This document shows positions 7,557 to 56,349 of a DNA stretch of 64,000 nucleotides, piece by piece (the stretch's first letter is position 1; every line of letters starts with the position of its first letter). A program made the position numbers and the translations under genes. Source of the stretch: an uncultured Methanosarcinales archaeon (GTDB lineage Archaea > Nanobdellota > Nanobdellia > Woesearchaeales > 21-14-0-10-32-9); the NCBI GenBank assembly GCA_964501945.1, contig CAZCTY010000001.1, forward strand, positions 49,187-113,186, in the 5' to 3' direction. A model generated the notes under the pieces. It was given only the letters and a program-made list of their open reading frames with translations, ran no database searches and had not been told where the DNA came from.

Positions 7557-7718
7557 ATGAAAAAGCAACTAAACATAAGACTTAGCGAAGAAATACGCAC
7601 CCAAGCTAAAATAACTGCTATTCTAAAAGGACTAACATTAAACGAGTACATAGAGAGAGCTATAAAAAAAGAACTCGAAAAAGATCAAAAAATAAACAAT
7701 TCAAAAAACAAAAAATGA
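7557..7718 (+). CDS. Small (53 aa) ribbon-helix-helix (CopG/Arc-like) DNA-binding protein
   Basis: MKKQLNIRLSEEIRTQAKITAILKGLTLNEYIERAIKKELEKD reads as a beta-strand followed by helix-turn-helix. Its TGA stop overlaps the ATG of the next gene (ATGA at 7715..7718). Confidence 0.5.
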   Translation: MKKQLNIRLSEEIRTQAKITAILKGLTLNEYIERAIKKELEKDQKINNSKNKK

Positions 7719-10444
7719 AAAAAAATAAACAAGACTGGATACTGAAAATAGGGATTTTCATAATTTTAACACTCATAACAATACAAACAACAAACGCACT
7801 AATAATAGAAACACCAGAATTAATAACAACACCAGAAGAGAAAATAGAATTTAAAATAAATATAAAAAACAACTCATCTAACGTAACAATAAAAACAGAA
7901 CCAGACATAGGAAAAATAACAAACCAAACACCTTTCACGTTCACATGGGACGTTAATTACGAGGATAAAACATACAAAGACATAATATTCATAGCAGAAG
8001 ATAACACAACAAAAACCAACTCAACAACAAGATTTGCAAAACCGCCAAAAATCACAGGACTTAATAACGACTCAATAGACAAAGAAACATACGAATTCAC
8101 ACTAAACACAGACATAGAAGCAACATGCAAATACGGATTAGAAAAAAAAGAACACAACGACCTAGAATACACAATGCAAACACAAGATAACAAAGCACAC
8201 AAAGGAACAACGCCAAAACTAAAACAAGACACACACACAATACACATAAACTGCAAAACAAACACAGGAGGAGAGAGTAAAGACTACTTCAAATTAGAAG
8301 TTAACCTGCCACCAACGGCGAGAATAAACCTCGAACCACCATCCCCACTAAGAGCAGGAATAATAGAAGTAGAAGTAATAACATCACAAGACCTAATAAC
8401 AGCGCCCGAACTTAGATATTTCTTCGACGACGATACATCTCCTAGAACAATAACCCTAACAGGCAGAGATAACAGGTGGACAGGACACATGATAATAGAG
8501 GAGACAACAAAAAGAAGAATAGGAACATTCACATTTAAAGGAAGAGACAAAACAAATATGGAGGGAGATGAAATAACCTCGGGAAAAACATTCATCGTAG
8601 ATAATAACAAACCAAAAACAATATCTAGCTTCACAGGAACAATGGAAGAAGATAGGATAAAATTAGAATGGAGATACTTAGATGAAGAGCTAGATGATAT
8701 AAAAGAATACAGAATATATAGACGAGAGAGAACTGGAGGCGTAGATTATACAGATTACTACCAAACAACACGAAACACATATTTTTACGATAGAGACGTA
8801 TCGCATAGCGAAGCATATTACTACAAAGTCACAGCGGTGAACCAAGCAGGAAGAGAGAGCGAACTCTCAAAAGAAATAGCACTAACATTCATCCCAGAAA
8901 CAAGAGAGGTGGAGGAGAGCGAAGAAGAACTAAAACCAATACTAAAAACACAACTAAATATAATAAAAAACCAAATAGATAACAAAATATTGAACTTAGA
9001 GACAACACAATCAAACCTTCAAAACAAGACAGACGAGAAAGCAGAAATAATACAAGATCTAAACTTACTACCAAAAATAATAACAGCCAAAAACAAATTA
9101 GAAAACATAAAAGAAGAACTAACAGACTTTGAGAAAAAATCACTGACAGAAACAGAATTTGAACAAATAACAAACCCACTAATTGAGGACGCAGAAAAAA
9201 TAGCTGAGGAAGCACTACAAGAAATAATAATAGAGGATGTAATAATATATGATGAAGAATTAAAAGAAGATATTGCTGAGAAGACCATAAAAAAATATCT
9301 TGAAACACAAAATATTAACCTAAGCCACAGAGATGCACAAAGATACATAGAGAACGCGATACAAGAACAAACACAATTCACAACAGAAGTAAAAATCATA
9401 AAAGCAAAAATAAAATATGCAAATAGAGAAGAGCCAATAACACATATAACAAAAAAAATAAAGAGTGATGAAAACCAACAAAACATAGTCTTACTAGATA
9501 ATATCAAATTAGATGAATTTGAAGAAATAAAATTCGTAGAATCTGTAACAAAAATAAAAGATGAAATAATAGCAAGACGATTAGATAATGCAGACGGAAA
9601 CAAAATAAGATATTACGCAACAGAGAACATAAGCGCAGATAACATACGTCAAACACAAACAATAATACTAAAAGAAGAAAAACTCGAGGAGACAAGAAAC
9701 CAAATAACAGCTATGGCAACAAAAGAGAGAGGAGATATAGAACACACACTCCTAATACCTCTAATTATAGCAATACTATCAGTACTAATACTATCAGTAT
9801 ACTACTTTAAAGACGATGAAACAACTATCATCGAGCTACTATCATTAAGAAACATAATACCAAAAAAAATATTTAAACAAAACCAACAACAAAGCAGAAA
9901 CCAAAAAATAGAACTAGAACAACCACCATCACTTGAAGAAACCAAAAACCTAGAACTAACTGAAAACGAAACAAAAACACTCACAAAATACACAACAAAA
10001 GAAGCTGATGCAAACAAGATACAAGAAACACAAAAAGAAGAACAAATAACAAAAACACAAGAACAACCAGAAGAACCAGAAGAACCAGAAGATGTATACA
10101 ACGTATTACACGATTTAAAAGACATGATGGAGGAGATATACTACGAAGATGACTTCGACGATTTTGAATATCTAAAAAAACTAAAACAAATAAGAAAAAA
10201 ATACAACAAAAAAGCGCCAGCAGGAAAAGAATTTATTTTAAAGACAGGAGAGAGAATAGACACAATAAATGAACTTAGACAGGCACTAAAAACAATGAGT
10301 AAAGAAACATTTAACCACCATGTAAACCAAGAAAAAAACGACTTCTACAAATGGATAAACGATGTATACAAATATAGGGGTCTTGCAAGAAGAATAAAAA
10401 GAGCAAAAACAAAAAAAGAAATAATAAAAAAACTAAAACCCTAA
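7715..10444 (+). CDS. Type I membrane surface protein: ectodomain with FN3-like module, TM helix, cytoplasmic E/K-rich region and C-terminal KNDF-W module
   Basis: The signal peptide ends in ITIQTTNALIIETP. An FN3-like segment is present (KEYRIYRRERTGGVDYTDYYQTTRNTYFYDRDVSHSEAYYYKVTAVNQAGRES). There is a coiled-coil region and a TM helix HTLLIPLIIAILSVLILSVYYF. The C-terminus reads ETFNHHVNQEKNDFYKWINDVYKYRGLARRIKRAKTKKEI. Confidence 0.7.
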   Translation: MKKNKQDWILKIGIFIILTLITIQTTNALIIETPELITTPEEKIEFKINIKNNSSNVTIKTEPDIGKITNQTPFTFTWDVNYEDKTYKDIIFIAEDNTTKTNSTTRFAKPPKITGLNNDSIDKETYEFTLNTDIEATCKYGLEKKEHNDLEYTMQTQDNKAHKGTTPKLKQDTHTIHINCKTNTGGESKDYFKLEVNLPPTARINLEPPSPLRAGIIEVEVITSQDLITAPELRYFFDDDTSPRTITLTGRDNRWTGHMIIEETTKRRIGTFTFKGRDKTNMEGDEITSGKTFIVDNNKPKTISSFTGTMEEDRIKLEWRYLDEELDDIKEYRIYRRERTGGVDYTDYYQTTRNTYFYDRDVSHSEAYYYKVTAVNQAGRESELSKEIALTFIPETREVEESEEELKPILKTQLNIIKNQIDNKILNLETTQSNLQNKTDEKAEIIQDLNLLPKIITAKNKLENIKEELTDFEKKSLTETEFEQITNPLIEDAEKIAEEALQEIIIEDVIIYDEELKEDIAEKTIKKYLETQNINLSHRDAQRYIENAIQEQTQFTTEVKIIKAKIKYANREEPITHITKKIKSDENQQNIVLLDNIKLDEFEEIKFVESVTKIKDEIIARRLDNADGNKIRYYATENISADNIRQTQTIILKEEKLEETRNQITAMATKERGDIEHTLLIPLIIAILSVLILSVYYFKDDETTIIELLSLRNIIPKKIFKQNQQQSRNQKIELEQPPSLEETKNLELTENETKTLTKYTTKEADANKIQETQKEEQITKTQEQPEEPEEPEDVYNVLHDLKDMMEEIYYEDDFDDFEYLKKLKQIRKKYNKKAPAGKEFILKTGERIDTINELRQALKTMSKETFNHHVNQEKNDFYKWINDVYKYRGLARRIKRAKTKKEIIKKLKP

Positions 10445-11340
10445 GCTGAAGGCGTAGCAGTAAATCTTAGAGTACCAGTACACTCTCCTTGAGGGTTAGG
10501 TGGAACATATAACTGCCAATAAACCTCCCAAATACTAGGAGCAGTCTCATCAGTTGCTTGAGGAATAGTAAAACCCATATCTTGATTAGATTCTGATAGA
10601 GGAGATTTATCTTCCCAATCAACAGAACTTGATGATGAAAACCTTTGATGCTCAACACCAATATCATCACCACGCTCACAAACCAAACCCAAACCATCAC
10701 CTTCTTCAACACCATAACCAAGAACACTAACATTAATATCCATGTTACCAATGTTAGCAATCAAAGCAGGAACATCCAAACTATAACTCATAACCGCCAC
10801 ATCACCATAATCAACAGTATCTGTAACGTTTAAAGCATACAACTCATTTATATCTGTGACATTTTCTAAAGAGCCGTTAAAACCCCAAGAGTCTTGAGCG
10901 CTTACATTACAAAACCACTCACCACTATTAGCATAATGAATAACATCAAAAGTACACGATGAATACGCTATGTATTCTCCATCATTATCATAAATCTCAC
11001 AACTACTATTAGTATAATGGACATTACCATCATCTTCCGCGCCGCTATGCGATGAGGAATGATAAAAAGTACCATTAACAGAAGTTATATCTTCCCAACC
11101 ATTCCAATCACGAATAGTAGCATTACAATAAACAGTCTTAAAATCACCCGCAACCAAAACAATGTCCTGATCAATATTAACTTCGAGCACCTCGGGGAGT
11201 GCGTTAGTAACATTTACACGAGTCACAGCTTCATCATATTCAAAATTTTGCTGCGCTGAAATAAAAGGCAAAAGAGCTAAAATAGATAAACATAGGACAA
11301 GACAAAACACCAATCCTTTGATTTTTAATCCATTCATCAT
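10441..11340 (-). CDS. Secreted protein, cassette family A (copy A1)
   Basis: The signal peptide ends in FISAQQ. It is a clear paralog of 52392..53267 (for example KTVYCNATIRDWNGWEDITSVNGTFY, HYTNSSCEIYDNDGEYIAYSSCTFDVIHYANSGEWFCNVSAQDSWGF, CTGTLRFTATPSA). Its C-terminal domain is also found in the 581-aa protein 22642..24387. Confidence 0.7.
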   Translation of the reverse strand: MMNGLKIKGLVFCLVLCLSILALLPFISAQQNFEYDEAVTRVNVTNALPEVLEVNIDQDIVLVAGDFKTVYCNATIRDWNGWEDITSVNGTFYHSSSHSGAEDDGNVHYTNSSCEIYDNDGEYIAYSSCTFDVIHYANSGEWFCNVSAQDSWGFNGSLENVTDINELYALNVTDTVDYGDVAVMSYSLDVPALIANIGNMDINVSVLGYGVEEGDGLGLVCERGDDIGVEHQRFSSSSSVDWEDKSPLSESNQDMGFTIPQATDETAPSIWEVYWQLYVPPNPQGECTGTLRFTATPSA

Positions 11341-11358: not shown

Positions 11359-12105
11359 TCAAGCACCTATTTCAGCATAAAAATAATACGTACTAGTACC
11401 AACAACCTGATCAGGCACAATACTCTGAAAATCAACTAAACTCCCAGTATTATAACTCTGCGTTCCTTTATTGATAGGAGTAGCATAAACCAAATCAGAA
11501 CCACTCGCAAGCAAAATCAAAGGAAAATCAGCATTGTTATGATCTTGAGGATTATTACTTACAAAAGTACTCGTACTCCTACAAGTATTCTCATCAATAT
11601 TAGTTAAACCTATAGATATCGTTGGATGAGTTTCCTCACTAAACGTTCTATTAACACTATCAGCAGAAGTAGAACTAAAACCTAAAGAGGAATCTTCATT
11701 TTCTATATCAATATCGGTAGGACAATCAATATCGGACCAATTAATAGAGTCACTACGACTAATAAAAACATTACCAGTCACATCCTCGTCCTCAAGCTCC
11801 CACCTAAAAATGGATTGACCTGACTCATCATCTAAAGTCAAAACACCTGTAAGGTTCCCCACGTATGCTTTCCACCTAGGGTTTTGCTGAACAACATCAA
11901 CTAAAATAGTATTAATGGTACCACCACTATCAGTTCTAGAGTCAGGAGAAACATCTGATCTACTCTCAGTCACACCGCTTTGAATTTCCAACCCTGTAGG
12001 CTGAGCCACGCTTATCTGAGCAGCTAATAAAAAAAACAAAAATACAGATAATAAGGAAAACAAAAATAACTTCAATTTTCCTTTACTTTTTTTGTTCGTT
12101 TCCAT
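11359..12105 (-). CDS. Secreted protein, cassette family B (copy B1); homologous to the C-terminal domain of the giant surface proteins
   Basis: The signal peptide ends in VAQP. Shared motifs are PRWKAYVGNLTG, IFRWELEDEDVTGNVFISRSDSINWSDIDCP and the C-terminal TYYFYAEI. It is a paralog of 53270..53980 and 55594..56349. Confidence 0.7.
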   Translation of the reverse strand: METNKKSKGKLKLFLFSLLSVFLFFLLAAQISVAQPTGLEIQSGVTESRSDVSPDSRTDSGGTINTILVDVVQQNPRWKAYVGNLTGVLTLDDESGQSIFRWELEDEDVTGNVFISRSDSINWSDIDCPTDIDIENEDSSLGFSSTSADSVNRTFSEETHPTISIGLTNIDENTCRSTSTFVSNNPQDHNNADFPLILLASGSDLVYATPINKGTQSYNTGSLVDFQSIVPDQVVGTSTYYFYAEIGA

Positions 12106-12154: not shown

Positions 12155-12931
12155 TTAGTAAATCTCAACCCAAAAGTAATAAGGCGTTGTATCGCTATTT
12201 CCGAATTGGCCATTTTCAGCAACTAATAATTGAAAATCATAATCGCCACCATCATAACCATCTTTACCTTGCCTTGCACCTTCAGCCCTATCTTCTATTA
12301 TAGATGTAAAGATTAAAGCATCATTTTCATCAGTTAATAAAACAGCAGGAAAATCTCTTTCCGCCTCAGGATCTTCTTGCCTTTCACTATCAACAAAAGT
12401 ATAAGTAGTCCTACAACCATTAACAGTCGTAAAACCAACATAAAACTCAGGATGGCTAGTATAAGGATATGTTATGTTAATATTATCATAGTCTGTATCA
12501 AGCATCCCATAATAATCATACCACATACCTCTAAAAGTATCATCTTCTATATCTGCACAACCAACACTAGTCCAAGAAATAGTGTTATTTACAGACGCAT
12601 AAACTTGACCTTGAGGCTCAGCCGCAGACCAGTCATAAAACCTCATACCAGAAGAATCTTCTAATATGATTGTACCTGACACGTTCCCAAAGAAACCTTG
12701 CCAGCTCTTTGTCTGAGATACACCTGTGATGTTTAGCTCCGTTAAATTACCTGCTAGCGCAGGAACCATAGCTGCAGGGTACAGGCTCGTGTTAGAAGTT
12801 TCACTTCTTATAACAGTCGCGTTTTCAGCACCTAATGGCGCGTTAAACCCGTCGTTAGCAGAAACCAAACCTCCAAAAGCTATGATAAAAAGGCTTGCTA
12901 ACATTGCAATTTTAAACATTTTGACATTCAT
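12155..12931 (-). CDS. Secreted protein, cassette family C (copy C1); distant relative of family B
   Basis: The signal peptide ends in VSANDG. Shared motifs are SWQGFFGNVSG, FYDWSAAEPQGQVYASVNNTISWTSVGCADIEDD and the C-terminal TPYYFWVEIY. It is a paralog of 54009..54731. Confidence 0.7.
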   Translation of the reverse strand: MNVKMFKIAMLASLFIIAFGGLVSANDGFNAPLGAENATVIRSETSNTSLYPAAMVPALAGNLTELNITGVSQTKSWQGFFGNVSGTIILEDSSGMRFYDWSAAEPQGQVYASVNNTISWTSVGCADIEDDTFRGMWYDYYGMLDTDYDNINITYPYTSHPEFYVGFTTVNGCRTTYTFVDSERQEDPEAERDFPAVLLTDENDALIFTSIIEDRAEGARQGKDGYDGGDYDFQLLVAENGQFGNSDTTPYYFWVEIY

Positions 12932-13163: not shown

Positions 13164-14087
13164 TCAATAATTTTCTAATAAATTAAGTAATTCCTCTCTA
13201 CTATAAACGCTTCTAATCTTGCGAGCGAGCTTCTCCTCACCAAAAACATGAAGCACCCACTCAGCAAAATCATTTTTACCCTCAAAGACATGCTTTTTAA
13301 AAACATCATCAGACATACCACGCAACTCATGAACCAAATCATTTAAACAAAGCAACAACTTACCATCAGCGAGAACAAAAGCCTTATCATGAGACACGTT
13401 TTTATTAAATAACTTAAAACGATCAGCCTTCCTAATTAACGCCTTAAGCTCCTCAGAAACCCTACCGATCTCATCTTCTTTTTCAACCAAAAGCTCCTTT
13501 GCAGCATTAAACTCTCTCGCCCTAATCAACCATTCCTCTTCAATTTCTTTTAATTTAAGCATTTTTTTATACAAAACATCTTCCAAATCCTGCTCGTGAA
13601 AAAAGAAATGCTCCCCTCTTGAACGAGCAGAATGATAACGCTTCATCATATCAACCAAATCAGATGAAATGTGCTTATCACTATCAGACTCACCGAGCTT
13701 TTTCTCTAAAACCTCAAAGAAAGACGGAAGCTTCTTAGACGAGACTTCCTCGCCAACATTATTATCTTGACTAGGCGAATTCTGGATAGGTGATTCTTGA
13801 TGGCTTTGCTTAATTGCATCGTTGTTTGAAGTATCACTATCTTTATTTTCAGAGGAATGCTCTTTAAAAAATTCAACACTAGATGAATTATCAAGCTTAT
13901 CAACAAAAATTTTTTTATCAGCAAGATCTTTTGGAAGCTGCCTCGGATGAGCTTCCTTAGACGCGACAGAACTTGATTCTTGATTAGCCAAACCATAAGT
14001 ATCAATTAAAGAATCAGGAAGAGACTTAGGAGCATCCAAACTAACATCTTTTTCAGAATCCTCACTTTTTTTATCCAACAAACCCAA
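13164..14087 (-). CDS. Cytoplasmic protein with disordered S/D/K-rich N-terminal half, coiled coil and C-terminal KNDF-W module
   Basis: No signal peptide or TM helix. The C-terminus reads LLLCLNDLVHELRGMSDDVFKKHVFEGKNDFAEWVLHVFGEEKLARKIRSVYSREELLNLLENY. Confidence 0.6.
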   Translation of the reverse strand: MGLLDKKSEDSEKDVSLDAPKSLPDSLIDTYGLANQESSSVASKEAHPRQLPKDLADKKIFVDKLDNSSSVEFFKEHSSENKDSDTSNNDAIKQSHQESPIQNSPSQDNNVGEEVSSKKLPSFFEVLEKKLGESDSDKHISSDLVDMMKRYHSARSRGEHFFFHEQDLEDVLYKKMLKLKEIEEEWLIRAREFNAAKELLVEKEDEIGRVSEELKALIRKADRFKLFNKNVSHDKAFVLADGKLLLCLNDLVHELRGMSDDVFKKHVFEGKNDFAEWVLHVFGEEKLARKIRSVYSREELLNLLENY

Positions 14088-14210: not shown

Positions 14211-15179
14211 ATGACATACCACAAACTACTAAAAAAAGTTCCAAAAGACAAAGAATTGAAACTAATAAGAGGAGTTACAGCACAAAACTACGAAGAATTA
14301 CTCACACAACTAATAAAAATAAAAGATGAAGATTTCAAAAAAATAATCAAAAAAGAAAACAAAATAATCAAATGGATAAAAGAAAACTACAATGACGAAA
14401 CACTAATTAACGAATTAAAAAATAAGAAAACCAAAAAAGAATACATGAAAAAAATATATGAGAGAATAGAGACAATAAAAAAAGAATCACAGGACCTCTC
14501 AACACTAATCAACCAAAGACAAAAACTAATAAAAAAGAAAACAAGCATCATGCCAATAATCTGGCTAAGTATATACATAATTTTAATCATACTACTAATA
14601 ACACAACACACATACTACACAAAACAAACAGACTACCTAAAAAACCGCGTAATAGACGAACAAGAAATAACAAAAAAATTCTACGAAGACAATATAAGAC
14701 TTAGAGAAAAAGAAACAGAACTGAGAGATGAAATACAAAAATTAAACGAAACAATAACCGAAATAGAGGAACAAAACACAGACCTAATGCAACAAATACG
14801 CGCACTAAACCTTGGAAGAACACAAGGACCAAAACCAAGGATTACAGAAGAAAACATAACAATAATAGATGAAGGCGTTATAATAAACGTTGATAATCCC
14901 TTATTTGCAATGTTTGAAGACACAAAATCAATGATACCAACAATAAACACCGATACAAAAGCAATACAAATAAAACCAAAAAATCCAGAAGACATACAAA
15001 AAGGAGATATAATAAGCTATGAGACGGAAGAGAAAATAATAATACACAGAGTTATAGAAGTAAATCAAGACGAAGAAGGATGGTACGCTACAACAAAAGG
15101 AGATAACACAAGACAACCAGACAGAGAAAAAGTAAGATTTGAACAAATAAGACGAATACTCATAGCACTAATATACTAA
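14211..15179 (+). CDS. Type I signal peptidase (S26B/Sec11-like) with an unusual N-terminal cytoplasmic extension, TM helix and coiled coil
   Basis: The C-terminal domain carries SPase boxes: the nucleophile box KSMIPTI, KGDIISY, the His box IIIHRVIEV (archaeal/ER Ser-His type) and GDN in TKGDNTRQPD. The TM helix is MPIIWLSIYIILIILLIT. The N-terminal approximately 90 aa resemble the KNDF-W module (EELLTQLIKIKDEDFKKIIKKENKIIKWIKENYNDETLINEL). Confidence 0.6.
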   Translation: MTYHKLLKKVPKDKELKLIRGVTAQNYEELLTQLIKIKDEDFKKIIKKENKIIKWIKENYNDETLINELKNKKTKKEYMKKIYERIETIKKESQDLSTLINQRQKLIKKKTSIMPIIWLSIYIILIILLITQHTYYTKQTDYLKNRVIDEQEITKKFYEDNIRLREKETELRDEIQKLNETITEIEEQNTDLMQQIRALNLGRTQGPKPRITEENITIIDEGVIINVDNPLFAMFEDTKSMIPTINTDTKAIQIKPKNPEDIQKGDIISYETEEKIIIHRVIEVNQDEEGWYATTKGDNTRQPDREKVRFEQIRRILIALIY

Positions 15180-15190: not shown

Positions 15191-18100
15191 TTAAATTATC
15201 TCAATGTAAAAAGCCAACTTCTCATTACTACCAGAATAAGTCCTAAGCGTAGCAGGCACCCTGACTTCAAAGTCATAAATACCGAAACGACCCTCGCTAC
15301 TAGGATTAATCTCAGTAACAAAAACAACAGTTTCTTTGTCTGCAGAGTCAAAACGCTCATTACCAGAATCATCACTAGTATCCCAAAGGATGCCAGTAAC
15401 AAAATCATCATACTCAGTACTCGCAACAACAGGAACATTATTAACAGGGCCACTTGGAAGATTAAAAGTACGAGTCTCAACAGGCACCTCAGAACCCGCG
15501 CCCCACGTATTCCTAATAGAATCACTAAGACCCGCCGTGCCCATAACATCATCTAACGCAGAAAAATCACCACTCACAAGGCCGCCATCAACGTTCCGAG
15601 TGAGCGCTTGCAAATCACCATAAGAAAAGGACGCATCAACATCAGAAAAGAAAACCAAACCTCCTCTACTAGAGAGATTACGATACTCAATGAACATAGA
15701 CAAATCATCCTTACCAAGAACAATATCAGAACTAGAACTACCAAAATAATACTGATAAAGCTCAACATACAAAGAATTATTAGCAACATTGTTATCAACA
15801 GTAGTTTCATTAACAACGTCCTCAGGATCAACCACCACAAAAACATTATTAGAACCAAAAGACAAATCAAAATCAGCACCAACACTTACAACATCCAAAC
15901 TACCAAGCCCAGGAACTAAAGACGAGCTAATAAACTCCCCTCCCTCAACAGGATTACCAAGATAAAAAGAAACATTAAATGACTCCTCAGCATCACTAAG
16001 ACCCTCATTAGAAACATTAGCAAAAACACTAACCTCAACACCCTCAATTAACTCATCATAATCAAACCAAATATCATCATCACGAACAACCAAGTCAGGC
16101 GCAGAAATATTCAACAAGAAGTTCTCATCCGCAAAACCAACATTATCATAAGAATCAACACACTCAACGTTCCACTCATGAATACCAATATCAACAAGAA
16201 CACCCTCAAAAGTATTAGTTTCATTACTCACAACGTTAACATCAGTAACAACTTCCTCCAAGACACCACCATTACTACCCAAAAACAAAGTACAGTTATC
16301 CAAATTAAAATCATAAGGACGATAACTAAAATCAAACAAGCCCCTACCAGCCTCAAAACCATCCTCAGGATTAATAAGTGAAACATTAGGAGGAGTCACA
16401 TCAGGTGCAACCTCAAAAGTTGTAAAACTAGTCGCATCATCATAAGATTCAGCAGACGCTAAAACAACAGACGAATACAAACCTAAATCAACCCCTTGAG
16501 TATTCCACGAAAAAGAATCACAACCACAACTACCACTAGTCTCACCACTAAAAGAATCAACAAGAACTTCTTCACCAGAGACAAGAACCTCATCAACATC
16601 AGAATCTTTGATGTAAGTAACATTTAACTCAACCCAATACAAATACATAGTAATAGTAGCAGCCCCGCCACTCTTTACAACTTCTCCCTGAAGCCTAGTC
16701 CTATTAAGCTCAGACCAAGAAAGAGAAGAATAAGACTCAGTGATATCAAACCACTGCGAAGTCGTCTTACCAATAGTACCAGAAAAACGATTTAACTCAG
16801 TATAACTAGCACCATCATCAACACTATAATGAAAAATCCTATTACTGGCGCCTCCGCTCTCAGGCACCTCATACCTAAATCTGGCCTCAACTCTTTCAAT
16901 ATCCCCAAAAGTTTCATCAATAAAATCACGCCCATGAAGCAAAACATAACGATCACCACCACCGCTAGCCTCAATTACCGCGAAAGAATCATCATCCTTA
17001 CCAAGAATACTATCCAAATCAGAAAAAGAACCCCCTTCTTCATCATCAATATCACGATCATTAGCATTAAATAAAGCACTCTCAACCAAATCAAGCTCAA
17101 CAGAAGGACCGCCGGCGTTAGGATTATCATAATAAACATAATAAGAATCATAATTAACAATGTTAGCGTCAAGATTAACAGCGAAAGATACAAAACAAGA
17201 ATCAAGCGTTTCCCCATGAACAGTAAACAAAGACTCAACAGGATCTAAAGACTCATGATTAACAAACCTTAATTCATCACAACTCTCAACGCTACCCTCA
17301 AGACCGGTAATATTAACACTAGCCACGCCATCAACTAACTCAACACCAGAAGTTTCATTCATAACAATATTTCTTCTTCTACCCCAATCAGAATCCCACC
17401 AAGGAACACCAGTTTCACCACTAATAATGAACGCATCAAAAAAAGTATTAAGAGGACTTAAAAAAGCATCAGTACTATTAACCAAAATAGACGCAGGCGT
17501 GCCCACCTCCCATGAAGCCTCAGTCGAGACTTCAATGTTAATAGTATCATCATCAACACCAGTAAAAAAACGAGTCTCACTAACACCAGTATTATCAAAT
17601 ACATCAGTACACTCAACCCTCCAAGAATAATCATCCTCAACAACGCTTAGAGAAAAAAACTGAGAGGTGAACCTAGCAACATCCTCATCAACCTGATTTA
17701 ATTCACCATTAACATACAAAGAACAACTCTCAATAGGAGATGAATCATTAACATTATAATTTAAACTCCGCGTCCCAGTAGAAATTAAAGAATTATTACC
17801 AGGACTCTCAAGCAAAACAACAGGAGGAGACACATCTAAAACATTAACAGAATAAGTAATATTATCATAAAAATAATTATCAGTCTCATTGAAAACCAAA
17901 GAAACATTATAAGAACCAGGATCCTCAAATAATAAATCTTCCTCAACAAAACCATTACCAGAAGATATTAAATCATTATTCAAATACAATTCTAAATAAC
18001 CCTCATCAGGAATAGCAACGTCTCCTGCGATGCTTACAACTTCATTTTCATCAATAACCAAATCATCCTCAACACCATTTAAAGAAAGACTAAACACTGG

Positions 18101-21100
18101 CAAAGACTTATTAACAAAATAAGAAAAAGAAGACGTCTCATTAAAATTACCAGAAGAATCATTAGCAAACCAAGAATAACTATAAAGACCAGCATCCAAA
18201 TCCTCAACTGAAAAACTATAAACACCATTAACTAAAAATAATTCTTTTTCAACAAATTCACCAGAGAAATTATGCTGAAGTAAAACAGTATCAACCCCAA
18301 AATTATCCTCCCAAGAAATATTAAAATAATAAACCCTCTCAGCATAACTAACAGGAGACTGCGGGCTAACAACGATGTCGCTATATTCAGGAGCCTCAGT
18401 ATCAACACTCAAAGAAAAATTCTCAGAGGCAAAACTCACCCTAGAACTTTTATCAACACATAAAACATTCCAAGAAAAAGAACCACTAGGAACACTAACA
18501 CTAAAAACGTTTTGTGAACCACTAACAGGACTTGAATCACTCGCGGTTTCCTCAAAAGAACCACTAACATTACTATACAAAAAACACTCATCAAGATTTT
18601 CATCAAAAGGAGTGTACACAAAATTCACATCATCAAAATTTAAAAAAGCACCATCCTCAGGAATGTTCAAATCAACCACGGGGTCAGTCAAATCAACAGT
18701 GAAAAACTCAACACTCGAAAAACCAATATTATTCTCAGAACTATTATCAACGCAAGAAACACTCCAATTATACAAACCCTCAGAAAAATCACTAAGAGAA
18801 AAAGTATTAACCTCAAAATTATCAACACTAAAACTTTGAGCATCTAACTCATCATCAACAAACAAAGAACAACTCTCAATGCCAGTCGCATCCTCAACTA
18901 AGTATTCAAATAAAATACTAGATGAATTCAAAAATTCATCACTCTCAGGATTTAAAAGAGAAATAACAGGAGGATCAGTATCCAAAGATTCAACAGTTAA
19001 AAAACGAGAATCACTAACCTCAAAGTTACCAAGAGAATCAAAACAACGAACGTTCCACTCATAATAATTATTAGATAAAAAAGTAGACATATTAAAAGGA
19101 ACCTCATCAACAATATCGCTCTTAGTTTCTCTAACAGAACCATTAACTAATAATTCACAATAATCAATACCAGAAACATCACAACACGCACCCGCAGAGA
19201 AAGTTACAACGTTAGTATCATCAATCAAAGCACCATCATCAGGACTGAACAAAGAAATATCAGGGCCGGATTGATCAATAATAAAAGACCACGCATCAGA
19301 AATACCATCATTACCAGCCTCATCAAAACAATGAACCTCCCACTCAAAAGTATTTTCAAACAACTCACGCTCAAAAGAATTAACAACACCTTCAATAGGA
19401 GAAGAATCCACATCAACAACTTCTAAGACGCCAGACTCATTTGTATGCAACTCACAATGACTAAGCGTGTTTTCCTCACTTGGAATATATGAAAAAGAAA
19501 CCAAAGAATCACTAGTTAAAAAATTATCAACAGGAGCTTCCAAACTAACAACAGGAGCAGTCCTATCAGTTATGTACTTGAAAACACTACTAGACTCAAC
19601 AGAATTACCAAATACATCATACGCAATAACCTTCCAATAATAAATGCGGTTAGCATCCAACGCGAAATCTAAAGAATACTCACTTTGAGAAATACTACTA
19701 GATGAGTAAACAAAATCAGGACTGCTAAGAGAAGGATTATCAGCAATGATTAAAGTGTAATTATCAAAATCAGGAGTCACAGTCTCCTCCCAAGACATAG
19801 TCGGATTTAACTCACGAGACTCCGTAGCATTAAGAGGATTTAACAAATCAAATTCGGTGGGAGGCACAACTTCAACCTCGAACCACAAATCAACACTTTT
19901 CTCACTGCTCTGACCAAGAGTATCGTTCGCCCAAATATTAGTTATGTTGTAAATGCCCTCATCTAAAGTATCTGTGAAAACAAAAAAGAATTCATCACCA
20001 TCTCTTTCTAACTCATGCTCAACAACAGAAGAATCAGGATACATCGCGGTTATAGAAGCAATATCAACACCGAAACTATCAGTTATACTAACACTAAAAC
20101 GAACAGACCTGTTCTGTCTTATGATTGTTTCATTAAGTGCTTCATTTTCAATTAACGGAGGCTGAGCGTTAATAAAAACAGTCCTATTATCATCAGCGAA
20201 AGCAAATCTTTCATCCTCGTTCTCACACCTAACGTTCCACTCATAAACACCATCACTAGGACTAAGACTAAAACTAGTAAGCGTATCAGTATCTACATCA
20301 CTGAGAGTAGCAGAAATATCCCATGAACCAGTAATATTAGTATAAAGATCACAAGTTAAAGTAGAATAAGTCTCATCACTAGCACTAAATGAAAAGTCTA
20401 CTGGGGTGTTAGAAACAATCTCATTATCACCAGGCGCACTCAAAGAAACCTCTGGCGGAGGCGTACCAGTATCAACTTCCAAGTAAGCCGCATAAACAAC
20501 GGCATCAGTAGGCCTACCACCACTCGCTCTTTCAACATGTCCAAAATGAACACTCAAATCATCAAGAGAACCAGAAGGATCACTCCAAGTACAACTAGAC
20601 CAAGAAGTAGAACTACCTCCTGGAACGAGATTACTACAAACAGTAGTTCCGCCTTGCCTTAAAGAATAAGTAAACTCAGCAGTATTACCAGTATTAGAAT
20701 ATACCCACAAAGTAATCTCCTCAACACCTGTCTCAACAACACTAGAAAAACCAAACTCAGACTCTTCCTCATCACCCATCCCACTTGCTATGCTGGTAGC
20801 GGTACTAGGCGCACTGGGCTGACGAGTACCTTTGCTGATTTGCGTGTAAGAAGTACCAGAACCAGAACTCCACTCAGTAGTTATATCGCTTGTAGGATCA
20901 TAATACGTAATAGGATCAATAGCCAAGTACCAAGGACGAGCCTCTTCAAATAATTTAACCTCACTTTCTTTCTCATAATCAATGAAACTTTGAAAAGCCC
21001 AAAGATACGGAATAATAAAAGGAGAATTAAAACTATATGAGGCAGAAAAATCACCATTTAAATTACTCCAAGTCAAATAAATATTATCAGCATCACGCGT

Positions 21101-22600
21101 CTTAACCGCGGAACCATAATCCTCAACAGAGAAACTAGAAGGCAAAACCTCTGTAAAAGAATAATCACTAATATTAACCCTAGGAGATACATTAACACTT
21201 GATTTAAAAGGACCTTGATAAGGATCAATAGTCACAGGAGTATCCCTTATAATATCAAACTCGTACTCATCACGCACAACAAAAAAAGAAACCATAGAAT
21301 CATCAACATTCCGCCCAATAGCAGACACACCCAAATCATACCTGCCCTCAACACTAGTTGTATGATTCAAATAATAAATACCAGTACCTGCATCAACTAT
21401 ATCAGACGGACCATACTCAAAGAATTCACCACGAGGATCAGTGATATTAATAATGACATCCGCGCCAGGAGTTAAATAACCATCACGATCAAGAACAACC
21501 ACAACTAACTCAGCCACATCACCTGATTGATAAATAGATTTTTTAGAATTAATAGACGCAACACCAGTTTCAGCATAAGCATTATCATCAGATTTACTCA
21601 AAACAAGCTCATATTCCTCACCAGGCACCAAGTCTTTGACCTTACTCCAACTACCTTCACATTCTTGAGATTCAAAAACCCAAGAATCACACATCAACAA
21701 CTCAGAACCCTCAGCAACATTAACCAAAACAATCTCGTCAAATTCAAAATCAAAACCAAGAGATAAAATCTTACTATTTTTATCATTTAAACGAACATTT
21801 CGAATCTCCTCCAACCCAAAACGAGCATTAGGAGAATTATCAAAACCCCGCATCTTAATTTCTCTAACGCCCAGGCCACGAGGCTGAATATTAAAATCAG
21901 AAACATCACCAGAAGACAAAACACCAACGCCTCGACTCGCATCCTCAGACACATCAATTTTAACATCCCTAAAATTACCACGAGAATTAACAACACCAAA
22001 AGGAGCCATCGAAGATTCAACGTCCTCAACAAAGAAAACACCTTCAAAAGTCTCTCCTGAATCATCTTCAACTAAAACATAGTATTCACCAGGCTCAGAC
22101 GGGAAAAAACTAACAGGAAACGTAGGAGTCCCAGAGAAAGAAAACTCACGCTCACCAAATTTAATAACTAACTTATTAACATTTAAATCCTCAGATAAAT
22201 CAATCTCAACCTCCTCACCAATCCTATAATTCTCACGCCCAGTAAAAACAACATCGTCTGGGCTAGCATCAAAAGACTCCTCAGCAAAACCATCTTCTCC
22301 GATAACAGAAAAAGAAGCACTACCAACAATATCAGAACCATTAATAACATTAATAACATAATCCCCAGAGCTTTCAGGAAAAAAACTATGACTTCCAAGA
22401 ACGTCCCCAACCATTCTAAAAACACGATCATCATGAACAATTTCTAAACGAGTACCATTAAAAGAGACATAAAAATCAACTTGCACCCCCAAATCAAAAA
22501 CATCATCTTCTAAATCAACAAAGCCACTAACAAAAGGTACAAAAGAGAGAAAACTAATAATAAACAAAATACACAATCCCCAAAAAATCCTTCCCCTCAT
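15191..22600 (-). CDS. Giant (2469 aa) secreted cell-surface protein built of tandem approximately 95-aa beta-sandwich modules; conserved B/C-like C-terminal domain
   Basis: The signal peptide ends in FVPFVSG. There are at least 10 modules ending in a Y-x-W-x-V-x-C-x-D-x-x-G-N motif (YEWNVRCENEDE, FEWEVHCFDEAGN, YEWNVRCFDSLGN, YNWSVSCVDNS, FSWNVLCVDKS, YSWRVECTDVFDN, HEWNVECVDSYDN). N-x-S/T sequons are very frequent. The C-terminus TGILWDTSDD..FEVRVPATLRTYSGSNEKLAFYIEII aligns with the B-family proteins. Confidence 0.8.
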   Translation of the reverse strand: MRGRIFWGLCILFIISFLSFVPFVSGFVDLEDDVFDLGVQVDFYVSFNGTRLEIVHDDRVFRMVGDVLGSHSFFPESSGDYVINVINGSDIVGSASFSVIGEDGFAEESFDASPDDVVFTGRENYRIGEEVEIDLSEDLNVNKLVIKFGEREFSFSGTPTFPVSFFPSEPGEYYVLVEDDSGETFEGVFFVEDVESSMAPFGVVNSRGNFRDVKIDVSEDASRGVGVLSSGDVSDFNIQPRGLGVREIKMRGFDNSPNARFGLEEIRNVRLNDKNSKILSLGFDFEFDEIVLVNVAEGSELLMCDSWVFESQECEGSWSKVKDLVPGEEYELVLSKSDDNAYAETGVASINSKKSIYQSGDVAELVVVVLDRDGYLTPGADVIINITDPRGEFFEYGPSDIVDAGTGIYYLNHTTSVEGRYDLGVSAIGRNVDDSMVSFFVVRDEYEFDIIRDTPVTIDPYQGPFKSSVNVSPRVNISDYSFTEVLPSSFSVEDYGSAVKTRDADNIYLTWSNLNGDFSASYSFNSPFIIPYLWAFQSFIDYEKESEVKLFEEARPWYLAIDPITYYDPTSDITTEWSSGSGTSYTQISKGTRQPSAPSTATSIASGMGDEEESEFGFSSVVETGVEEITLWVYSNTGNTAEFTYSLRQGGTTVCSNLVPGGSSTSWSSCTWSDPSGSLDDLSVHFGHVERASGGRPTDAVVYAAYLEVDTGTPPPEVSLSAPGDNEIVSNTPVDFSFSASDETYSTLTCDLYTNITGSWDISATLSDVDTDTLTSFSLSPSDGVYEWNVRCENEDERFAFADDNRTVFINAQPPLIENEALNETIIRQNRSVRFSVSITDSFGVDIASITAMYPDSSVVEHELERDGDEFFFVFTDTLDEGIYNITNIWANDTLGQSSEKSVDLWFEVEVVPPTEFDLLNPLNATESRELNPTMSWEETVTPDFDNYTLIIADNPSLSSPDFVYSSSSISQSEYSLDFALDANRIYYWKVIAYDVFGNSVESSSVFKYITDRTAPVVSLEAPVDNFLTSDSLVSFSYIPSEENTLSHCELHTNESGVLEVVDVDSSPIEGVVNSFERELFENTFEWEVHCFDEAGNDGISDAWSFIIDQSGPDISLFSPDDGALIDDTNVVTFSAGACCDVSGIDYCELLVNGSVRETKSDIVDEVPFNMSTFLSNNYYEWNVRCFDSLGNFEVSDSRFLTVESLDTDPPVISLLNPESDEFLNSSSILFEYLVEDATGIESCSLFVDDELDAQSFSVDNFEVNTFSLSDFSEGLYNWSVSCVDNSSENNIGFSSVEFFTVDLTDPVVDLNIPEDGAFLNFDDVNFVYTPFDENLDECFLYSNVSGSFEETASDSSPVSGSQNVFSVSVPSGSFSWNVLCVDKSSRVSFASENFSLSVDTEAPEYSDIVVSPQSPVSYAERVYYFNISWEDNFGVDTVLLQHNFSGEFVEKELFLVNGVYSFSVEDLDAGLYSYSWFANDSSGNFNETSSFSYFVNKSLPVFSLSLNGVEDDLVIDENEVVSIAGDVAIPDEGYLELYLNNDLISSGNGFVEEDLLFEDPGSYNVSLVFNETDNYFYDNITYSVNVLDVSPPVVLLESPGNNSLISTGTRSLNYNVNDSSPIESCSLYVNGELNQVDEDVARFTSQFFSLSVVEDDYSWRVECTDVFDNTGVSETRFFTGVDDDTINIEVSTEASWEVGTPASILVNSTDAFLSPLNTFFDAFIISGETGVPWWDSDWGRRRNIVMNETSGVELVDGVASVNITGLEGSVESCDELRFVNHESLDPVESLFTVHGETLDSCFVSFAVNLDANIVNYDSYYVYYDNPNAGGPSVELDLVESALFNANDRDIDDEEGGSFSDLDSILGKDDDSFAVIEASGGGDRYVLLHGRDFIDETFGDIERVEARFRYEVPESGGASNRIFHYSVDDGASYTELNRFSGTIGKTTSQWFDITESYSSLSWSELNRTRLQGEVVKSGGAATITMYLYWVELNVTYIKDSDVDEVLVSGEEVLVDSFSGETSGSCGCDSFSWNTQGVDLGLYSSVVLASAESYDDATSFTTFEVAPDVTPPNVSLINPEDGFEAGRGLFDFSYRPYDFNLDNCTLFLGSNGGVLEEVVTDVNVVSNETNTFEGVLVDIGIHEWNVECVDSYDNVGFADENFLLNISAPDLVVRDDDIWFDYDELIEGVEVSVFANVSNEGLSDAEESFNVSFYLGNPVEGGEFISSSLVPGLGSLDVVSVGADFDLSFGSNNVFVVVDPEDVVNETTVDNNVANNSLYVELYQYYFGSSSSDIVLGKDDLSMFIEYRNLSSRGGLVFFSDVDASFSYGDLQALTRNVDGGLVSGDFSALDDVMGTAGLSDSIRNTWGAGSEVPVETRTFNLPSGPVNNVPVVASTEYDDFVTGILWDTSDDSGNERFDSADKETVVFVTEINPSSEGRFGIYDFEVRVPATLRTYSGSNEKLAFYIEII

Positions 22601-40340: not shown

Positions 40341-41333
40341 TCAATTTTTTAATTTATTTTTTTTAATGACATCTCCATTAACATTAGCCTTTTCCAAAAC
40401 TTCTTTTTTTATGTCAAGCTCAACAAATTGCTCAGCACTAGCAATTTCCTCCTCAACCTCGTCTAACAAGTTTTTAACTTTGTCTCTTGCCTCAAAAGAA
40501 TTATCAACTTCTAAGAAATGAATCTTAGGCTTAATCAATTTAAGCTTCATAAAAGGAATAAGCATATCAATACCTCTCCTCCTTTTCGCAGATATCAAAG
40601 AATAAAGAGATTCATACCTCTCATTAATATCAGAAACATTAGCCTTTAAAACTTCCTCGTTTAAATAAGTATTTTGCTTCATTTTCTTTGTTTTTTCTAA
40701 AAGTTGCTCACTACGCTCAGATAATGAAGCAGGAGCTGAGGTCTCAAAATCTTTTTCAGTAGAGGAGTCTTTATTCAAACTATCATTTGTTGAAGAAGGC
40801 TGTTCTATTTTTTCAGAAACATTATTAGAAGCATCACTGTCATTAGAATTTTCGACATCTTCCTTTTTAGTTTTATTTACATCAACTTCTGTTTTATTCT
40901 CTGAATTATTTTCATCAAGAGAAGCCACATCATTTGATATATTTTCATCAGATTCTTTTTTATTTCTTTTAAACAGATTCTTTAGATAATTTTTTTCTTT
41001 TTTTCTTTTATTTTCATGAGGCTTACTAATATCAGTTTTATTTTTTTTTCTAAAACTAATCTTTTTTTTCTTTTTCTTTCCATTCAAATGCTCATTAAGA
41101 ATACTTAATAAATCCTCAGGAGAACTTTTTTTCGAAAAAGAGTTAGCCAAATCTTCTTTTCCAAAAAAGCCTCTAACCCAATTCGCATAATCATTATTAG
41201 TGTCAGTAACATGTCTTTGAAAATTATGAAGATTAATTCCCTTAACATTTTTTTCTAATTCTTCTTTCAATTCGCTTAAATCTCTGAGAACTTCACCATT
41301 ACTAAAATAAAAATATTTATCTGGACTAACCAT
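40341..41333 (-). CDS. 330-aa cytoplasmic protein: N-terminal KNDF-W-like module, K/N-rich linker, C-terminal coiled coil
   Basis: The N-terminus SNGEVLRDLSELKEELEKNVKGINLHNFQRHVTDTNNDYANWVRGFFGKEDLANSF aligns with the recurring module. Its start overlaps the upstream ATPase gene by 8 nt. Confidence 0.6.
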   Translation of the reverse strand: MVSPDKYFYFSNGEVLRDLSELKEELEKNVKGINLHNFQRHVTDTNNDYANWVRGFFGKEDLANSFSKKSSPEDLLSILNEHLNGKKKKKKISFRKKNKTDISKPHENKRKKEKNYLKNLFKRNKKESDENISNDVASLDENNSENKTEVDVNKTKKEDVENSNDSDASNNVSEKIEQPSSTNDSLNKDSSTEKDFETSAPASLSERSEQLLEKTKKMKQNTYLNEEVLKANVSDINERYESLYSLISAKRRRGIDMLIPFMKLKLIKPKIHFLEVDNSFEARDKVKNLLDEVEEEIASAEQFVELDIKKEVLEKANVNGDVIKKNKLKN

Positions 41334-54749: not shown

Positions 54750-55322
54750 TTAAGTTATCATCCTCTTACTAATTTTATGAGGATCGTAAATAGGATAGTA
54801 GCTTTCTTGAGATGCCTCAACATCACCAACAGTGATTTCTTCAACACCCAAACCATCAACTAATTTTTTTGAAACATTATCCTTGAAAATTATTTTAACA
54901 CTTGATTTAGGAGATTCTTCAACAAAAATCCCAGCTATTTGATCGATGCTTTCTTTTAACGCGAAGTACGTTTTTTCTATTTCCTCGTGCTTGTTACTGT
55001 ATGGATAGAGCCAAATTTTAATCAAAGCTTTTTTGTGCTCGTCAATACTGATCATTTTTTTCTCAACGAAACCATCAGCTGTTACAATTAAGTAAGCATT
55101 ATCTTTCGCGATGCTATAAACAACTCTTGGCTGGCCCTTGTCACGATTACTTATTCTCTCACTTTTTACGATGTTTGCAAGCTCGAGGAATCTTAATGAT
55201 TGGCTGATGTTTGACATTGAAGTATTTGCAAGCTTTGCCAATTCTAAAGGTGATTTTTTTTCTCGAGCTAACGCTTTCAAAATGTTCCATTTTGCGCTTG
55301 TAAAAAGTGTCTCTTGATCCAT
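54750..55322 (-). CDS. Winged-HTH transcriptional regulator (ArsR/MarR-like N-terminal domain plus C-terminal domain), first gene of the C2-B2-A2 cassette
   Basis: The start is taken at the internal ATG MDQETLF (the track ORF extends to 55385). The wHTH segment is AKWNILKALAREKKSPLELAKLANTSMSNISQSLRFLELANIVKSERISNRDKGQPRVVYSI. Confidence 0.6.
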   Translation of the reverse strand: MDQETLFTSAKWNILKALAREKKSPLELAKLANTSMSNISQSLRFLELANIVKSERISNRDKGQPRVVYSIAKDNAYLIVTADGFVEKKMISIDEHKKALIKIWLYPYSNKHEEIEKTYFALKESIDQIAGIFVEESPKSSVKIIFKDNVSKKLVDGLGVEEITVGDVEASQESYYPIYDPHKISKRMIT

Positions 55323-55515
55323 TTTTGCTCTTTTTTCTCTCCTAAACAAACACAAAAATGCGTCTTTTAAGCCACGTATATACAAAATCGTTGCTTGTGG
55401 CTTTTAGTATACATTTTTGTATTCTGATTTAATCAATGTGATAGCTCATATTTAAATGTTTCGTTTTTTACAATAAAATTTAATTTGTAGAAGTTGAAAA
55501 TAAACAAAAATAAAG

Positions 55516-55593: not shown

Positions 55594-56349
55594 TCAATAA
55601 ATTTCTGCAAAGAAATAATAAGTTGTAGGATCGGCAGCAGTCGGATCTTCAGGAACAATTAATTGAAAATCATAAAACTGAGAATCATAACCAACTTGAG
55701 CTTGCTCTATTAACGATGCAAAAACCAAATTACTAGATCCATCTTCAAGCAAAATTTCCTGGAAACTAGACTCGACAGACGGCTCTTGCCTAGCATCATC
55801 AACGTAAGTTGCAATAGCTCTACAAGAACTTTCAACTATTTGAGTGGTTCCAACAAAGAAACTCCTATGAATTGTTTCGTTAAACGTTCTATTTATACTA
55901 TCAGCACTCTCATCATCAATATTCAAATTGAGTTGCTCACTTAATATGCTCTGCTCACTCGCACAATCTATGCTTGCCCAATCAATATCTTCATGACGTG
56001 TAACATAAACTTGACCTGAAACAGTGACTAAATCCCAATCATAAATAGATTGGCTGCTCGCATCTTGCAGAGCAAGTCTACCGGAGACGTTACCAACATA
56101 CGCTTTCCAACGAGGAGTTTGAAAAGTACCATTTAAAACAAGCGTAGTAAATGTTCCGCCAGCAGTAGTTAACTCGGCAGCAGGCTCAGGAGTAATAGTT
56201 TCAGTTTCGTTTAGTGATATATCTACACCGGCAGGCTGAGCACTAACACTGCTTGAAATATTTAAAGCCCCAAAAGAGCTTGTTATGAGTAAAACTAAGA
56301 GGAATACAATAACTAATTTCTCCATCCGCAAATTAGTCGCTTTACTCAT
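55594..56349 (-). CDS. Secreted protein, cassette family B (solo copy B3) inside the IR-bounded segment
   Basis: The signal peptide ends in SVSAQPAG. Motifs PRWKAYVGNVSGRLALQDASSQSIYDWDL, IDWASIDCAS and the C-terminal TTYYFFAEIY. Confidence 0.7.
   Translation of the reverse strand: MSKATNLRMEKLVIVFLLVLLITSSFGALNISSSVSAQPAGVDISLNETETITPEPAAELTTAGGTFTTLVLNGTFQTPRWKAYVGNVSGRLALQDASSQSIYDWDLVTVSGQVYVTRHEDIDWASIDCASEQSILSEQLNLNIDDESADSINRTFNETIHRSFFVGTTQIVESSCRAIATYVDDARQEPSVESSFQEILLEDGSSNLVFASLIEQAQVGYDSQFYDFQLIVPEDPTAADPTTYYFFAEIY

Follow-up and report, generated by a model that had tools for sequence, protein, structure and literature searches.

A predicted Sec11-type signal peptidase with a cytoplasmic DUF5752 module and an extracellular stalk, encoded beside giant secreted-protein genes in a DPANN archaeon

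Signal peptidases are thought to need an active site at the membrane surface, and the archaeal ones are described as a simple anchor followed by a catalytic domain. Here we analyze a gene whose product places a signal-peptidase domain far from its anchor. It lies in a 64,000-nucleotide, AT-rich stretch of archaeal metagenomic DNA (G+C about 33–37%; contig CAZCTY010000001.1 of assembly GCA_964501945.1), to which we refer at its full length as the window. Judged by its sequence, the product contains an S26B peptidase domain from which no catalytic residue is missing, and this domain is joined through a helical stalk and a membrane anchor to a cytoplasmic DUF5752-type module. We refer to the protein as the stalked peptidase.

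Cryo-electron microscopy and mutagenesis of the human signal peptidase complex defined a catalytic triad of Ser56, His96 and Asp122, with Asp116 salt-bridged to Arg97, and the SEC11 active site abuts the membrane (10.1101/2020.11.11.378711). Methanococcus voltae SPI and Haloferax volcanii Sec11a and Sec11b use the same Ser/His/Asp chemistry and have one or two transmembrane (TM) segments (PMC4343526). Specialized extra signal peptidases exist in H. volcanii and Bacillus subtilis (PMC4343526, PMC9245690); no dedicated peptidase came to light in a study of TasA-like pili of archaea (PMC9245690). Our literature search on DPANN archaea and signal peptidases returned nothing relevant.

With the archaeal enzymes the stalked peptidase shares boxes B, D and E and an N-in/C-out anchor N-terminal to the catalytic domain (PMC4343526). 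It differs from them in carrying 110 additional cytoplasmic residues (the DUF5752 module and a helix), in separating the TM segment from the catalytic serine by 109 residues where canonical enzymes have few, in an extra beta-hairpin before box B, in having no C-terminal TM segment or tail, and in being invisible to the Pfam S24/S26 models. The best solved relatives are SEC11A and SEC11C (PDB 7P2P, 7P2Q); each residue of their triad and of their Asp-Arg salt bridge has an aligned counterpart in the stalked peptidase. Whereas SEC11 sits in a four-subunit complex with its active site at a thinned patch of membrane, the stalked domain is minimal and lies a long way from its anchor, and we saw no homologues of the SEC11 accessory subunits. 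SipW of B. subtilis (tapA-sipW-tasA) is likewise of the Sec11 type and is encoded beside secreted subunits that it possibly processes, but it lacks a comparable cytoplasmic domain or stalk; the stalked peptidase scores far under the SipW equivalog cut-off, and its neighbors are not detectably TasA-like. The resemblance to SipW is only loose and consists in being encoded beside candidate substrates.

Profile comparisons identify the catalytic domain. The archaeal signal peptidase I model of NCBIfam (TIGR02228) matched residues 238–313 (positions 38–114 of 158 in the model) at 56.7 bits, above the curated cut-off of 51.85, and the SipW model (NF046067) matched with an E-value of 4e-11 but at 42.8 bits against an equivalog cut-off of 190. 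Both models matched all 22 aligned family members (TIGR02228 at E ≤ 1e-3). When only the single sequence was searched against the PDB, the result was a marginal SEC11 match (E = 0.14) and a spurious match to a PR-10 allergen; the family profile settled the matter by recovering human SEC11C and SEC11A with E-values of about 2e-7. Pfam returned no S24/S26 match on the 322-amino-acid (aa) protein, only weak coiled-coil matches attributable to noise, and NCBIfam was needed for the identification.

The initial annotation, made without database searches, had proposed a Sec11-type peptidase with boxes SM-x-PT, GDII, IIIHRVI and GDN. All four boxes are present (S240-M-I-P243-T, G265-D-I-I, I276-I-I-H279-R-V-I and G297-D-N), and a proper alignment places the catalytic serine and histidine as proposed. 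Ser240, His279, Arg280, Asp298 and Asp304 are invariant in the 22-sequence family alignment; the first, second and last of these align with the SEC11A triad Ser56/His96/Asp122, and Asp298-Arg280 with the salt bridge Asp116-Arg97. The two aspartates are six residues apart, the same spacing as between Asp116 and Asp122 of SEC11A. In the AlphaFold model of the peptidase (mean predicted local distance difference test, pLDDT, 88.7), the domain shows a family-specific beta-hairpin at residues 216–225. The chain stops 82 residues past the serine, in ...ALIY, without a C-terminal TM segment, and this spacing is kept in nearly all family members examined. Foldseek searches with the beta-rich residues 213–322 gave SipA (4n31) as the best match, followed by SpsB, LexA and UmuD – all of clan SF, with weak scores (best E 5e-3). 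A self-cleaving S24 protein of the LexA/UmuD type was excluded because the base position holds His279 rather than a lysine and no Ala-Gly or AxA motif is conserved within residues 199–235. We predict that the protein is a catalytically competent Sec11/SipW-type (MEROPS S26B) type I signal peptidase, with putative cleavage after AxA-type sites.

The gene is a single open reading frame (ORF) running from an ATG start to a TAA stop, with no internal stop codon or frameshift. Its N-terminus cannot extend further because an in-frame stop lies five codons 5' of the ATG (the stop-to-stop ORF begins at 14196). An identical 322-aa protein, flanked by the same two neighbors (genes for a 307-aa and a 2469-aa protein), occurs in four independent metagenome assemblies, and the same architecture is found in homologues at 30–35% identity; a frameshift or an assembly fusion is therefore excluded. 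The initial annotation had taken the N-terminal part to belong to the same gene and had placed that gene convergent with a giant-protein gene, and both points hold: 11 bases separate the stop codons of the peptidase gene and the 2469-aa Ig-repeat (immunoglobulin-like repeat) gene on the opposite strand. On its other side, the peptidase gene is divergent from the 307-aa gene across an AT-rich spacer of 123 bp.

A single hydrophobic segment is present (residues 110–135), preceded by about 110 residues. A KKK run N-terminal of the TM helix predicts an N-in/C-out topology, and the preceding residues are predicted to be cytoplasmic, as first annotated. AlphaFold models residues 114–198 as one unbroken helix, which comprises the TM segment and about 65 extracellular residues and would measure about 9–10 nm beyond the membrane if straight. 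Residues 136–198 contain neither proline nor glycine. A heptad test found one register that places I, L, M or V at 56% of a and d positions (shuffle p = 0.0015), most strongly over residues 162–196, and the pattern is similar in most long-form homologues, that is, in those that carry the module and stalk. The coiled coil of 80 aa first annotated before the catalytic boxes stands as a helical heptad stretch, although the length is only roughly right, the extracellular part being about 65 aa. The distance from the TM end to the catalytic serine is 94–114 aa across 27 long-form sequences and is spanned by a helical stalk; among the short forms, which lack the module, it is 55–133 aa and mostly consists of flexible low-complexity linkers. 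An active site at the membrane surface, with the serine soon after the TM segment, is a defining trait of S26B enzymes that the stalked peptidase does not share. The features of the gene and of its principal neighbors are collected in the table.

Table. Coordinates of the stalked peptidase gene, its parts and associated genes in the window (position 1 is the first nucleotide of the 64,000)
Feature	Position	Strand	Basis or remark
Whole gene: predicted stalked S26B signal peptidase, long form, 322 aa	14211..15179 (including stop codon)	+	
Cytoplasmic DUF5752-type module, aa 4–85	14220..14465	+	module HMM, alignment, AlphaFold
Long cytoplasmic helix after the module, aa 75–108	14433..14534	+	AlphaFold
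Single TM helix, aa 113–133	14547..14609	+	hydropathy maximum 2.75
Extracellular helical stalk with heptad (coiled-coil-like) pattern, aa 134–198	14610..14804	+	AlphaFold, heptad test, weak coiled-coil Pfam matches
Flexible linker with invariant Pro207, aa 199–212 (~14 aa)	14805..14846	+	pLDDT dip; invariant column
Minimal signal-peptidase catalytic domain, aa 213–322	14847..15176	+	TIGR02228, SEC11A/C profile, Foldseek
Ser240 codon, predicted nucleophile, box B SMxP	14928..14930	+	invariant; aligns with Ser of GSMEP in SEC11A/C
His279-Arg280 codons, box D; His predicted general base, Arg partner of Asp298	15045..15050	+	aligned to IVHRV
Asp298 codon (GDN), equivalent of SEC11A Asp116	15102..15104	+	invariant, aligned to SEC11A
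Asp304 codon, equivalent of SEC11A Asp122, predicted third triad member	15120..15122	+	invariant, aligned to SEC11A
Soluble 307-aa protein: disordered N-terminus, coiled coil, C-terminal DUF5752 module	13164..14087	-	homologue beside peptidase in L004, L017
Secreted 258-aa protein of 250-aa family, Sec signal peptide; candidate substrate	12155..12931	-	
Secreted 248-aa paralogue of 250-aa family; candidate substrate	11359..12105	-	
Secreted 299-aa protein	10441..11340	-	syntenic with peptidase in L004, L017
909-aa type I membrane protein, cytoplasmic tail ending in DUF5752 module	7715..10444	+	syntenic in L004, L017
Secreted 2469-aa protein, Ig-like repeats (Big_7, Big_13, CARDB); candidate substrate	15191..22600	-	
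1377-aa membrane HerA/FtsK-type ATPase, DUF5752 modules at aa 1053–1136 and 1294–1376	41326..45459	-	
Soluble 330-aa protein, N-terminal DUF5752 module	40341..41333	-	
995-aa PKD/CarboxypepD_reg membrane protein, upstream of ATPase	45456..48443	-	pair kept beside long forms in L005, L018

The cytoplasmic part of the stalked peptidase belongs to a family found elsewhere in the window. A hidden Markov model (HMM) built from nine modules, none of them from a peptidase, matched residues 4–85 with an E-value of 2.5e-15, and the N-terminal region first annotated as resembling a recurrent ‘KNDF-W’ module is a true homologue within the same gene. AlphaFold models it as a beta-hairpin and four short helices (residues 16–69) with pLDDT above 90. 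This copy is diverged – its His is replaced and NDF reads NKI, with L30, F42 and W55 retained – and because the His and the NDF motif are lost, Pfam DUF5752 (PF19027) gave no match on the peptidase's own N-terminus at E ≤ 0.01. The Pfam model does match 11 of 15 aligned modules, peptidase orthologues included, and reaches 35.7 bits against a cut-off of 23 on the 1377-aa ATPase.

The module profile also matched Thermoproteus tenax OrfY (PDB 4CSO; E 4e-5). OrfY holds two modules, and DUF5752 is therefore a tandem of an ~80-aa KNDF-W unit. The N-terminal module of the peptidase is homologous to the OrfY repeats, but where OrfY and the Pfam model (208 positions) have two modules in a soluble protein, the peptidase has one, fused to a membrane enzyme. 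Among window proteins only the HerA-type ATPase has two; single modules lie at the C-termini of the 909-aa and 307-aa proteins and at the N-terminus of the 330-aa protein. All module-bearing regions of the window have a predicted cytoplasmic location, as would suit a docking function. OrfY is the only solved relative of DUF5752; its depositors' label of ‘transcription factor’ is unverified, and our literature search found no paper on DUF5752 or OrfY.

We examined how widely this architecture occurs. A profile search of 1.84 billion representative proteins returned a peptidase family of 495 clusters at E ≤ 1e-30, and about 25 of the best 150 are 297–326 aa long. The long form is conserved in at least 25 clusters (50% identity level) of Woesearchaeota/Nanoarchaeia, with homologues about 30–35% identical: all but one of 27 long forms examined have a significant N-terminal module followed by the TM segment, helical spacer and catalytic domain, the exception (P0285) falling below threshold. 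A rough neighbor-joining tree built from the catalytic domains groups nearly all long forms in one region. The module is absent from the shorter relatives, but for six of them a separate gene next to the peptidase gene encodes it. Named members come from Woesearchaeota, Nanoarchaeia, Pacearchaeota and Aenigmatarchaeota metagenome-assembled genomes (MAGs) and are all ‘hypothetical protein’; the architecture of cytoplasmic DUF5752, TM segment, stalk and minimal catalytic domain is unannotated in the records examined. We place the stalked peptidase in a DPANN-specific subfamily whose members have a long spacer between the membrane anchor and the catalytic domain.

Two further observations concern these records. 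One metagenomic relative (P0149, 297 aa) has tandem peptidase domains, of which the first is degenerate (His to Ser, GDN to KDD) and the second intact, and may be a pseudo-dimeric variant. Several MAGs with clearly DPANN-type genes (loci L004/L011, L013, L016, L017 and others) are titled ‘uncultured Methanosarcinales archaeon’ or ‘Candidatus Saccharibacteria bacterium’, which are probably taxonomy labels carried over from automated binning.

To relate the module to the peptidase, we compared 12 distinct long-form loci, the window included, with 41 short-form loci. In five of the latter (L026, L027, L030, L049 and L058) the peptidase consists of a short N-terminus, a TM segment, a coiled coil and the catalytic domain, and a convergent gene encodes a free module-plus-helix protein of ~100 aa – exactly the piece that is fused in the long form. 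A neighboring gene in L052 encodes a module, a helix and a TM segment. Six of the seven module matches in short-form flanks directly adjoin the peptidase gene, and free ~100-aa proteins consisting of the module and helix are found elsewhere as well. This pattern of fusion and fission provides the best evidence for joint function of module and peptidase. Such two-gene pairs are also found where no giant-protein locus is near, and the module may thus be there for the peptidase itself and not for one particular assembly.

The 1377-aa ATPase has an N-terminal TM segment, an ectodomain of ~540 aa, a second TM segment, a cytoplasmic HerA/FtsK-type P-loop ATPase with weak matches to the HerA, CedD and TraD models, and two C-terminal DUF5752 modules. 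Its ectodomain combines a CarboxypepD_reg domain with part of the domain that defines a family of secreted 250-aa proteins (E 4e-9). Homologues in L005 and L018 (44–48% identity) are always preceded by a PKD membrane protein. The ATPase looks like the motor of an undescribed envelope system, and it may export the giant proteins of the locus. A candidate cytoplasmic partner is the 307-aa protein.

The three largest genes of the window encode secreted arrays of Ig-like domains. The 250-aa family is represented by five copies (within 11359–12931 and 53270–56349, minus strand) and has at least 294 homologues, all from DPANN archaea and all bearing only the name ‘hypothetical protein’. Its members have a Sec signal peptide, an invariant P-x-G motif, a disordered stretch of ~35 aa, a beta-rich core and two conserved cysteines, and they end in YYF[YWF]xE[IL]. 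The Ig-repeat giants themselves end in a 250-aa-family domain (aa 2288–2467 of a 2468-aa protein encoded at 31868–39274, minus strand, with E 2e-9; also the C-terminus of the 2469-aa protein) and have similar last strands (KLAFYIEII, VIFYTEIK). This suggests that the small and the giant proteins may be the same kind of subunit or cargo. Proteins of the locus bear ordinary predicted Sec signal peptides of the AxA type. An AlphaFold model of the 250-aa family found no PDB match by Foldseek, leaving a TasA-like identity unsupported, and the neighboring secreted proteins had no Pfam match.

Other genes of the window show related patterns. A second cluster (52392–56845, minus strand) contains three 250-aa-family genes and a 291-aa paralogue of the 299-aa protein, interleaved with genes for an ArsR-type helix-turn-helix (HTH) protein (54750..55385) and a sigma-70 region-4-like HTH protein (56342..56845). 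L015 repeats this mix, with five 250-aa-family genes and both HTH regulators beside a short-form peptidase. Between the giants and the 330-aa gene lies a gene (39274–40329, minus strand) for a soluble 351-aa protein; it consists almost wholly of coiled coil, with weak matches to the coiled coils of SMC/Rad50, and may serve the system as a scaffold in the cytoplasm. A secreted protein of 588 aa, which has a C-terminal TM segment and a Cys-rich, zinc-ribbon-like tail (3042–4808, plus strand), and a 233-aa membrane protein (5058–5759, plus strand) are syntenic with the locus in L004; a homologue of the former (41% identity) is encoded beside the short-form peptidase and DUF5752 gene of L052.

The peptidase gene is recurrently, but not always, located near genes of the HerA/giant/250-aa system. 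Five of the 12 long-form loci (the window, L004, L017, L005 and L018) adjoin either the HerA/PKD pair or a giant/250-aa cluster. L004 and L017 show synteny with the window; both have a giant, a homologue of the 307-aa protein, a free ~100-aa DUF5752 protein divergent from the peptidase, two 250-aa-family genes, the 299-aa family and a homologue of the 909-aa protein. The peptidase, PKD and HerA-type ATPase genes of L018 follow one another on one strand in an operon-like arrangement (ATPase 44% identical to that of the window), and in L005 the peptidase lies 2.6 kb from the PKD-ATPase pair (ATPase 48% identical). L001 has only a divergent 100-aa DUF5752 gene, and no other conserved neighbors were found in the remaining six long-form loci. 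Three of the 41 short-form loci adjoin system genes: the peptidase is separated by 21 bp from the cluster of 250-aa-family genes in L015, lies upstream of two such genes in L032 and abuts an Ig-repeat giant in L056.

Taking these observations together, we regard one joint reading as moderately probable: that the stalked peptidase is a tethered Sec11-type enzyme which processes secreted proteins encoded nearby and is docked to an envelope assembly by pairing of DUF5752 modules. On this reading, the enzyme would remove the Sec signal peptides of the 250-aa family and of the Ig-rich giants that share the same C-terminal domain. By analogy with two-module OrfY, its cytoplasmic module would pair with other DUF5752 modules, those of the free 100–300-aa module proteins or those on the tails of the HerA-type ATPase and the 909-aa membrane protein, and such pairing would hold the peptidase in or near an envelope-spanning assembly. 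That it is a dedicated enzyme recruited to the assembly, as the initial annotation suggested, is plausible but unproven.

Several findings weigh against this joint reading. The candidate substrates are not TasA-like, given the AlphaFold model without a PDB match. Within 10 kb of the peptidase gene, six or seven of the 12 long-form loci lack any system gene, and in the window the peptidase gene is monocistronic, being convergent with or divergent from its neighbors. The catalytic serine lies 109 residues beyond the TM segment, whereas the SEC11 active site abuts the membrane; as modeled, a rigid stalk would keep the domain about 10 nm away from the site of signal-peptide cleavage, and tilting, flexibility or action away from the membrane could possibly reconcile the two. 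Finally, no assembly in the genome scan had a long form together with a short one, an outcome equally compatible with a sole housekeeping enzyme and with a dedicated enzyme.

This last point leads to the strongest alternative, which we consider quite possible though short of probable: the protein could be a general, and possibly the sole, type I signal peptidase of its host. The tethered family would then be the DPANN Sec11, its module would regulate or position the enzyme generally, for instance by way of a small cytoplasmic partner, and its place at the giant locus would be incidental or would reflect a large substrate load. A core enzyme would be expected to have the breadth that the 495 clusters represent, and most short forms lie among housekeeping genes; L008, for example, is beside UvrD, RpiB and enolase genes on a 938-kb contig, with SRP54 9 kb away. 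Peptidase-DUF5752 pairs without a giant locus nearby also favor it. When the window and about 0.8 Mb of flanking sequence were translated in six frames and searched with the family HMM and a canonical-type query, no second signal peptidase was found. Likewise, none of 49 scanned assemblies contained two family members or both a long and a short form, but the scan pattern (WYA[ITV]TKGD, from a 9-sequence alignment) matches only about 25–50% of family members and a second copy is easily missed. The association with system genes argues in the opposite direction: it was seen in five of 12 long-form and three of 41 short-form loci, where a few percent would be expected (for a 20-kb span in a ~1-Mb genome), and the module is otherwise almost confined to system proteins in the sequences examined.

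The joint reading extends to a more ambitious proposal, which we advance tentatively and which is possible but rather doubtful. DUF5752 would be the docking module of an undescribed envelope-spanning machine of Woesearchaeota/Nanoarchaeia, composed of the membrane HerA/FtsK-type ATPase with its ectodomain, the PKD protein, the 909-aa protein, coiled-coil scaffolds and the stalked peptidase. Held at a fixed height, the peptidase would mature both the 250-aa subunits and Ig-rich giant adhesins. If true, this would be a new archaeal system for secretion or fibre assembly that includes its own processing enzyme.

The distance from the membrane raises the further alternative, unlikely in our judgment, that the protein does cleave substrates, but not as a signal peptidase at the membrane surface. 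From ~10 nm up it would trim N-terminal extensions or propeptides of exported subunits, for example exposing a strand for fibre assembly. Consistent with such a role, the spacing between the TM segment and the serine is long and tightly kept in length among the 27 long forms despite varied sequence, the linker after the stalk has only about 14 aa, and the 250-aa family has its invariant P-x-G motif and disordered stretch just after the signal peptide. However, the short forms have flexible spacers with which the domain could reach the membrane, the protein is related in sequence to signal peptidases, the AxA sites of the substrates are normal and next to the hydrophobic region, and no second cleavage motif was identified.

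A non-catalytic role is very improbable. Streptococcus pyogenes SipA/LepA (4N31), a peptidase-like assembly chaperone in pilus polymerization, is the best structural match of the catalytic domain; both proteins are linked to surface-fibre genes, and the stalked peptidase gene lies beside genes for possible fibre subunits. SipA is nevertheless defined by the loss of its catalytic residues, and their invariance in the stalked peptidase family excluded an inactive chaperone of this type; the sole degenerate domain seen, the first half of P0149, is in tandem with an intact one. Lastly, although split versions in other lineages could suggest that a DUF5752 gene and a short peptidase gene were joined by a sequencing or assembly error, this possibility is effectively refuted by the identity of the sequence across four assemblies, the recurrence of the continuous architecture in at least 25 diverged clusters and the opposite strands of the genes in split loci, which a frameshift could not fuse.

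These results describe a large family of spacer-borne peptidases that is visible only in DPANN metagenomes and escapes Pfam, and in which one clade adds a rigid stalk and a cytoplasmic DUF5752 domain. DUF5752 gains its first functional context, being fused to or adjoining a peptidase and present on the tails of a HerA-type ATPase system. Recognition of the family would improve annotation, since without it a signal peptidase may seem to be missing from these genomes. The cytoplasmic module and the stalk probably tie the peptidase to a neighboring surface-protein machine in these tiny DPANN archaea. The findings also offer a handle on how ultra-small, probably host-attached archaea build and process giant surface proteins.

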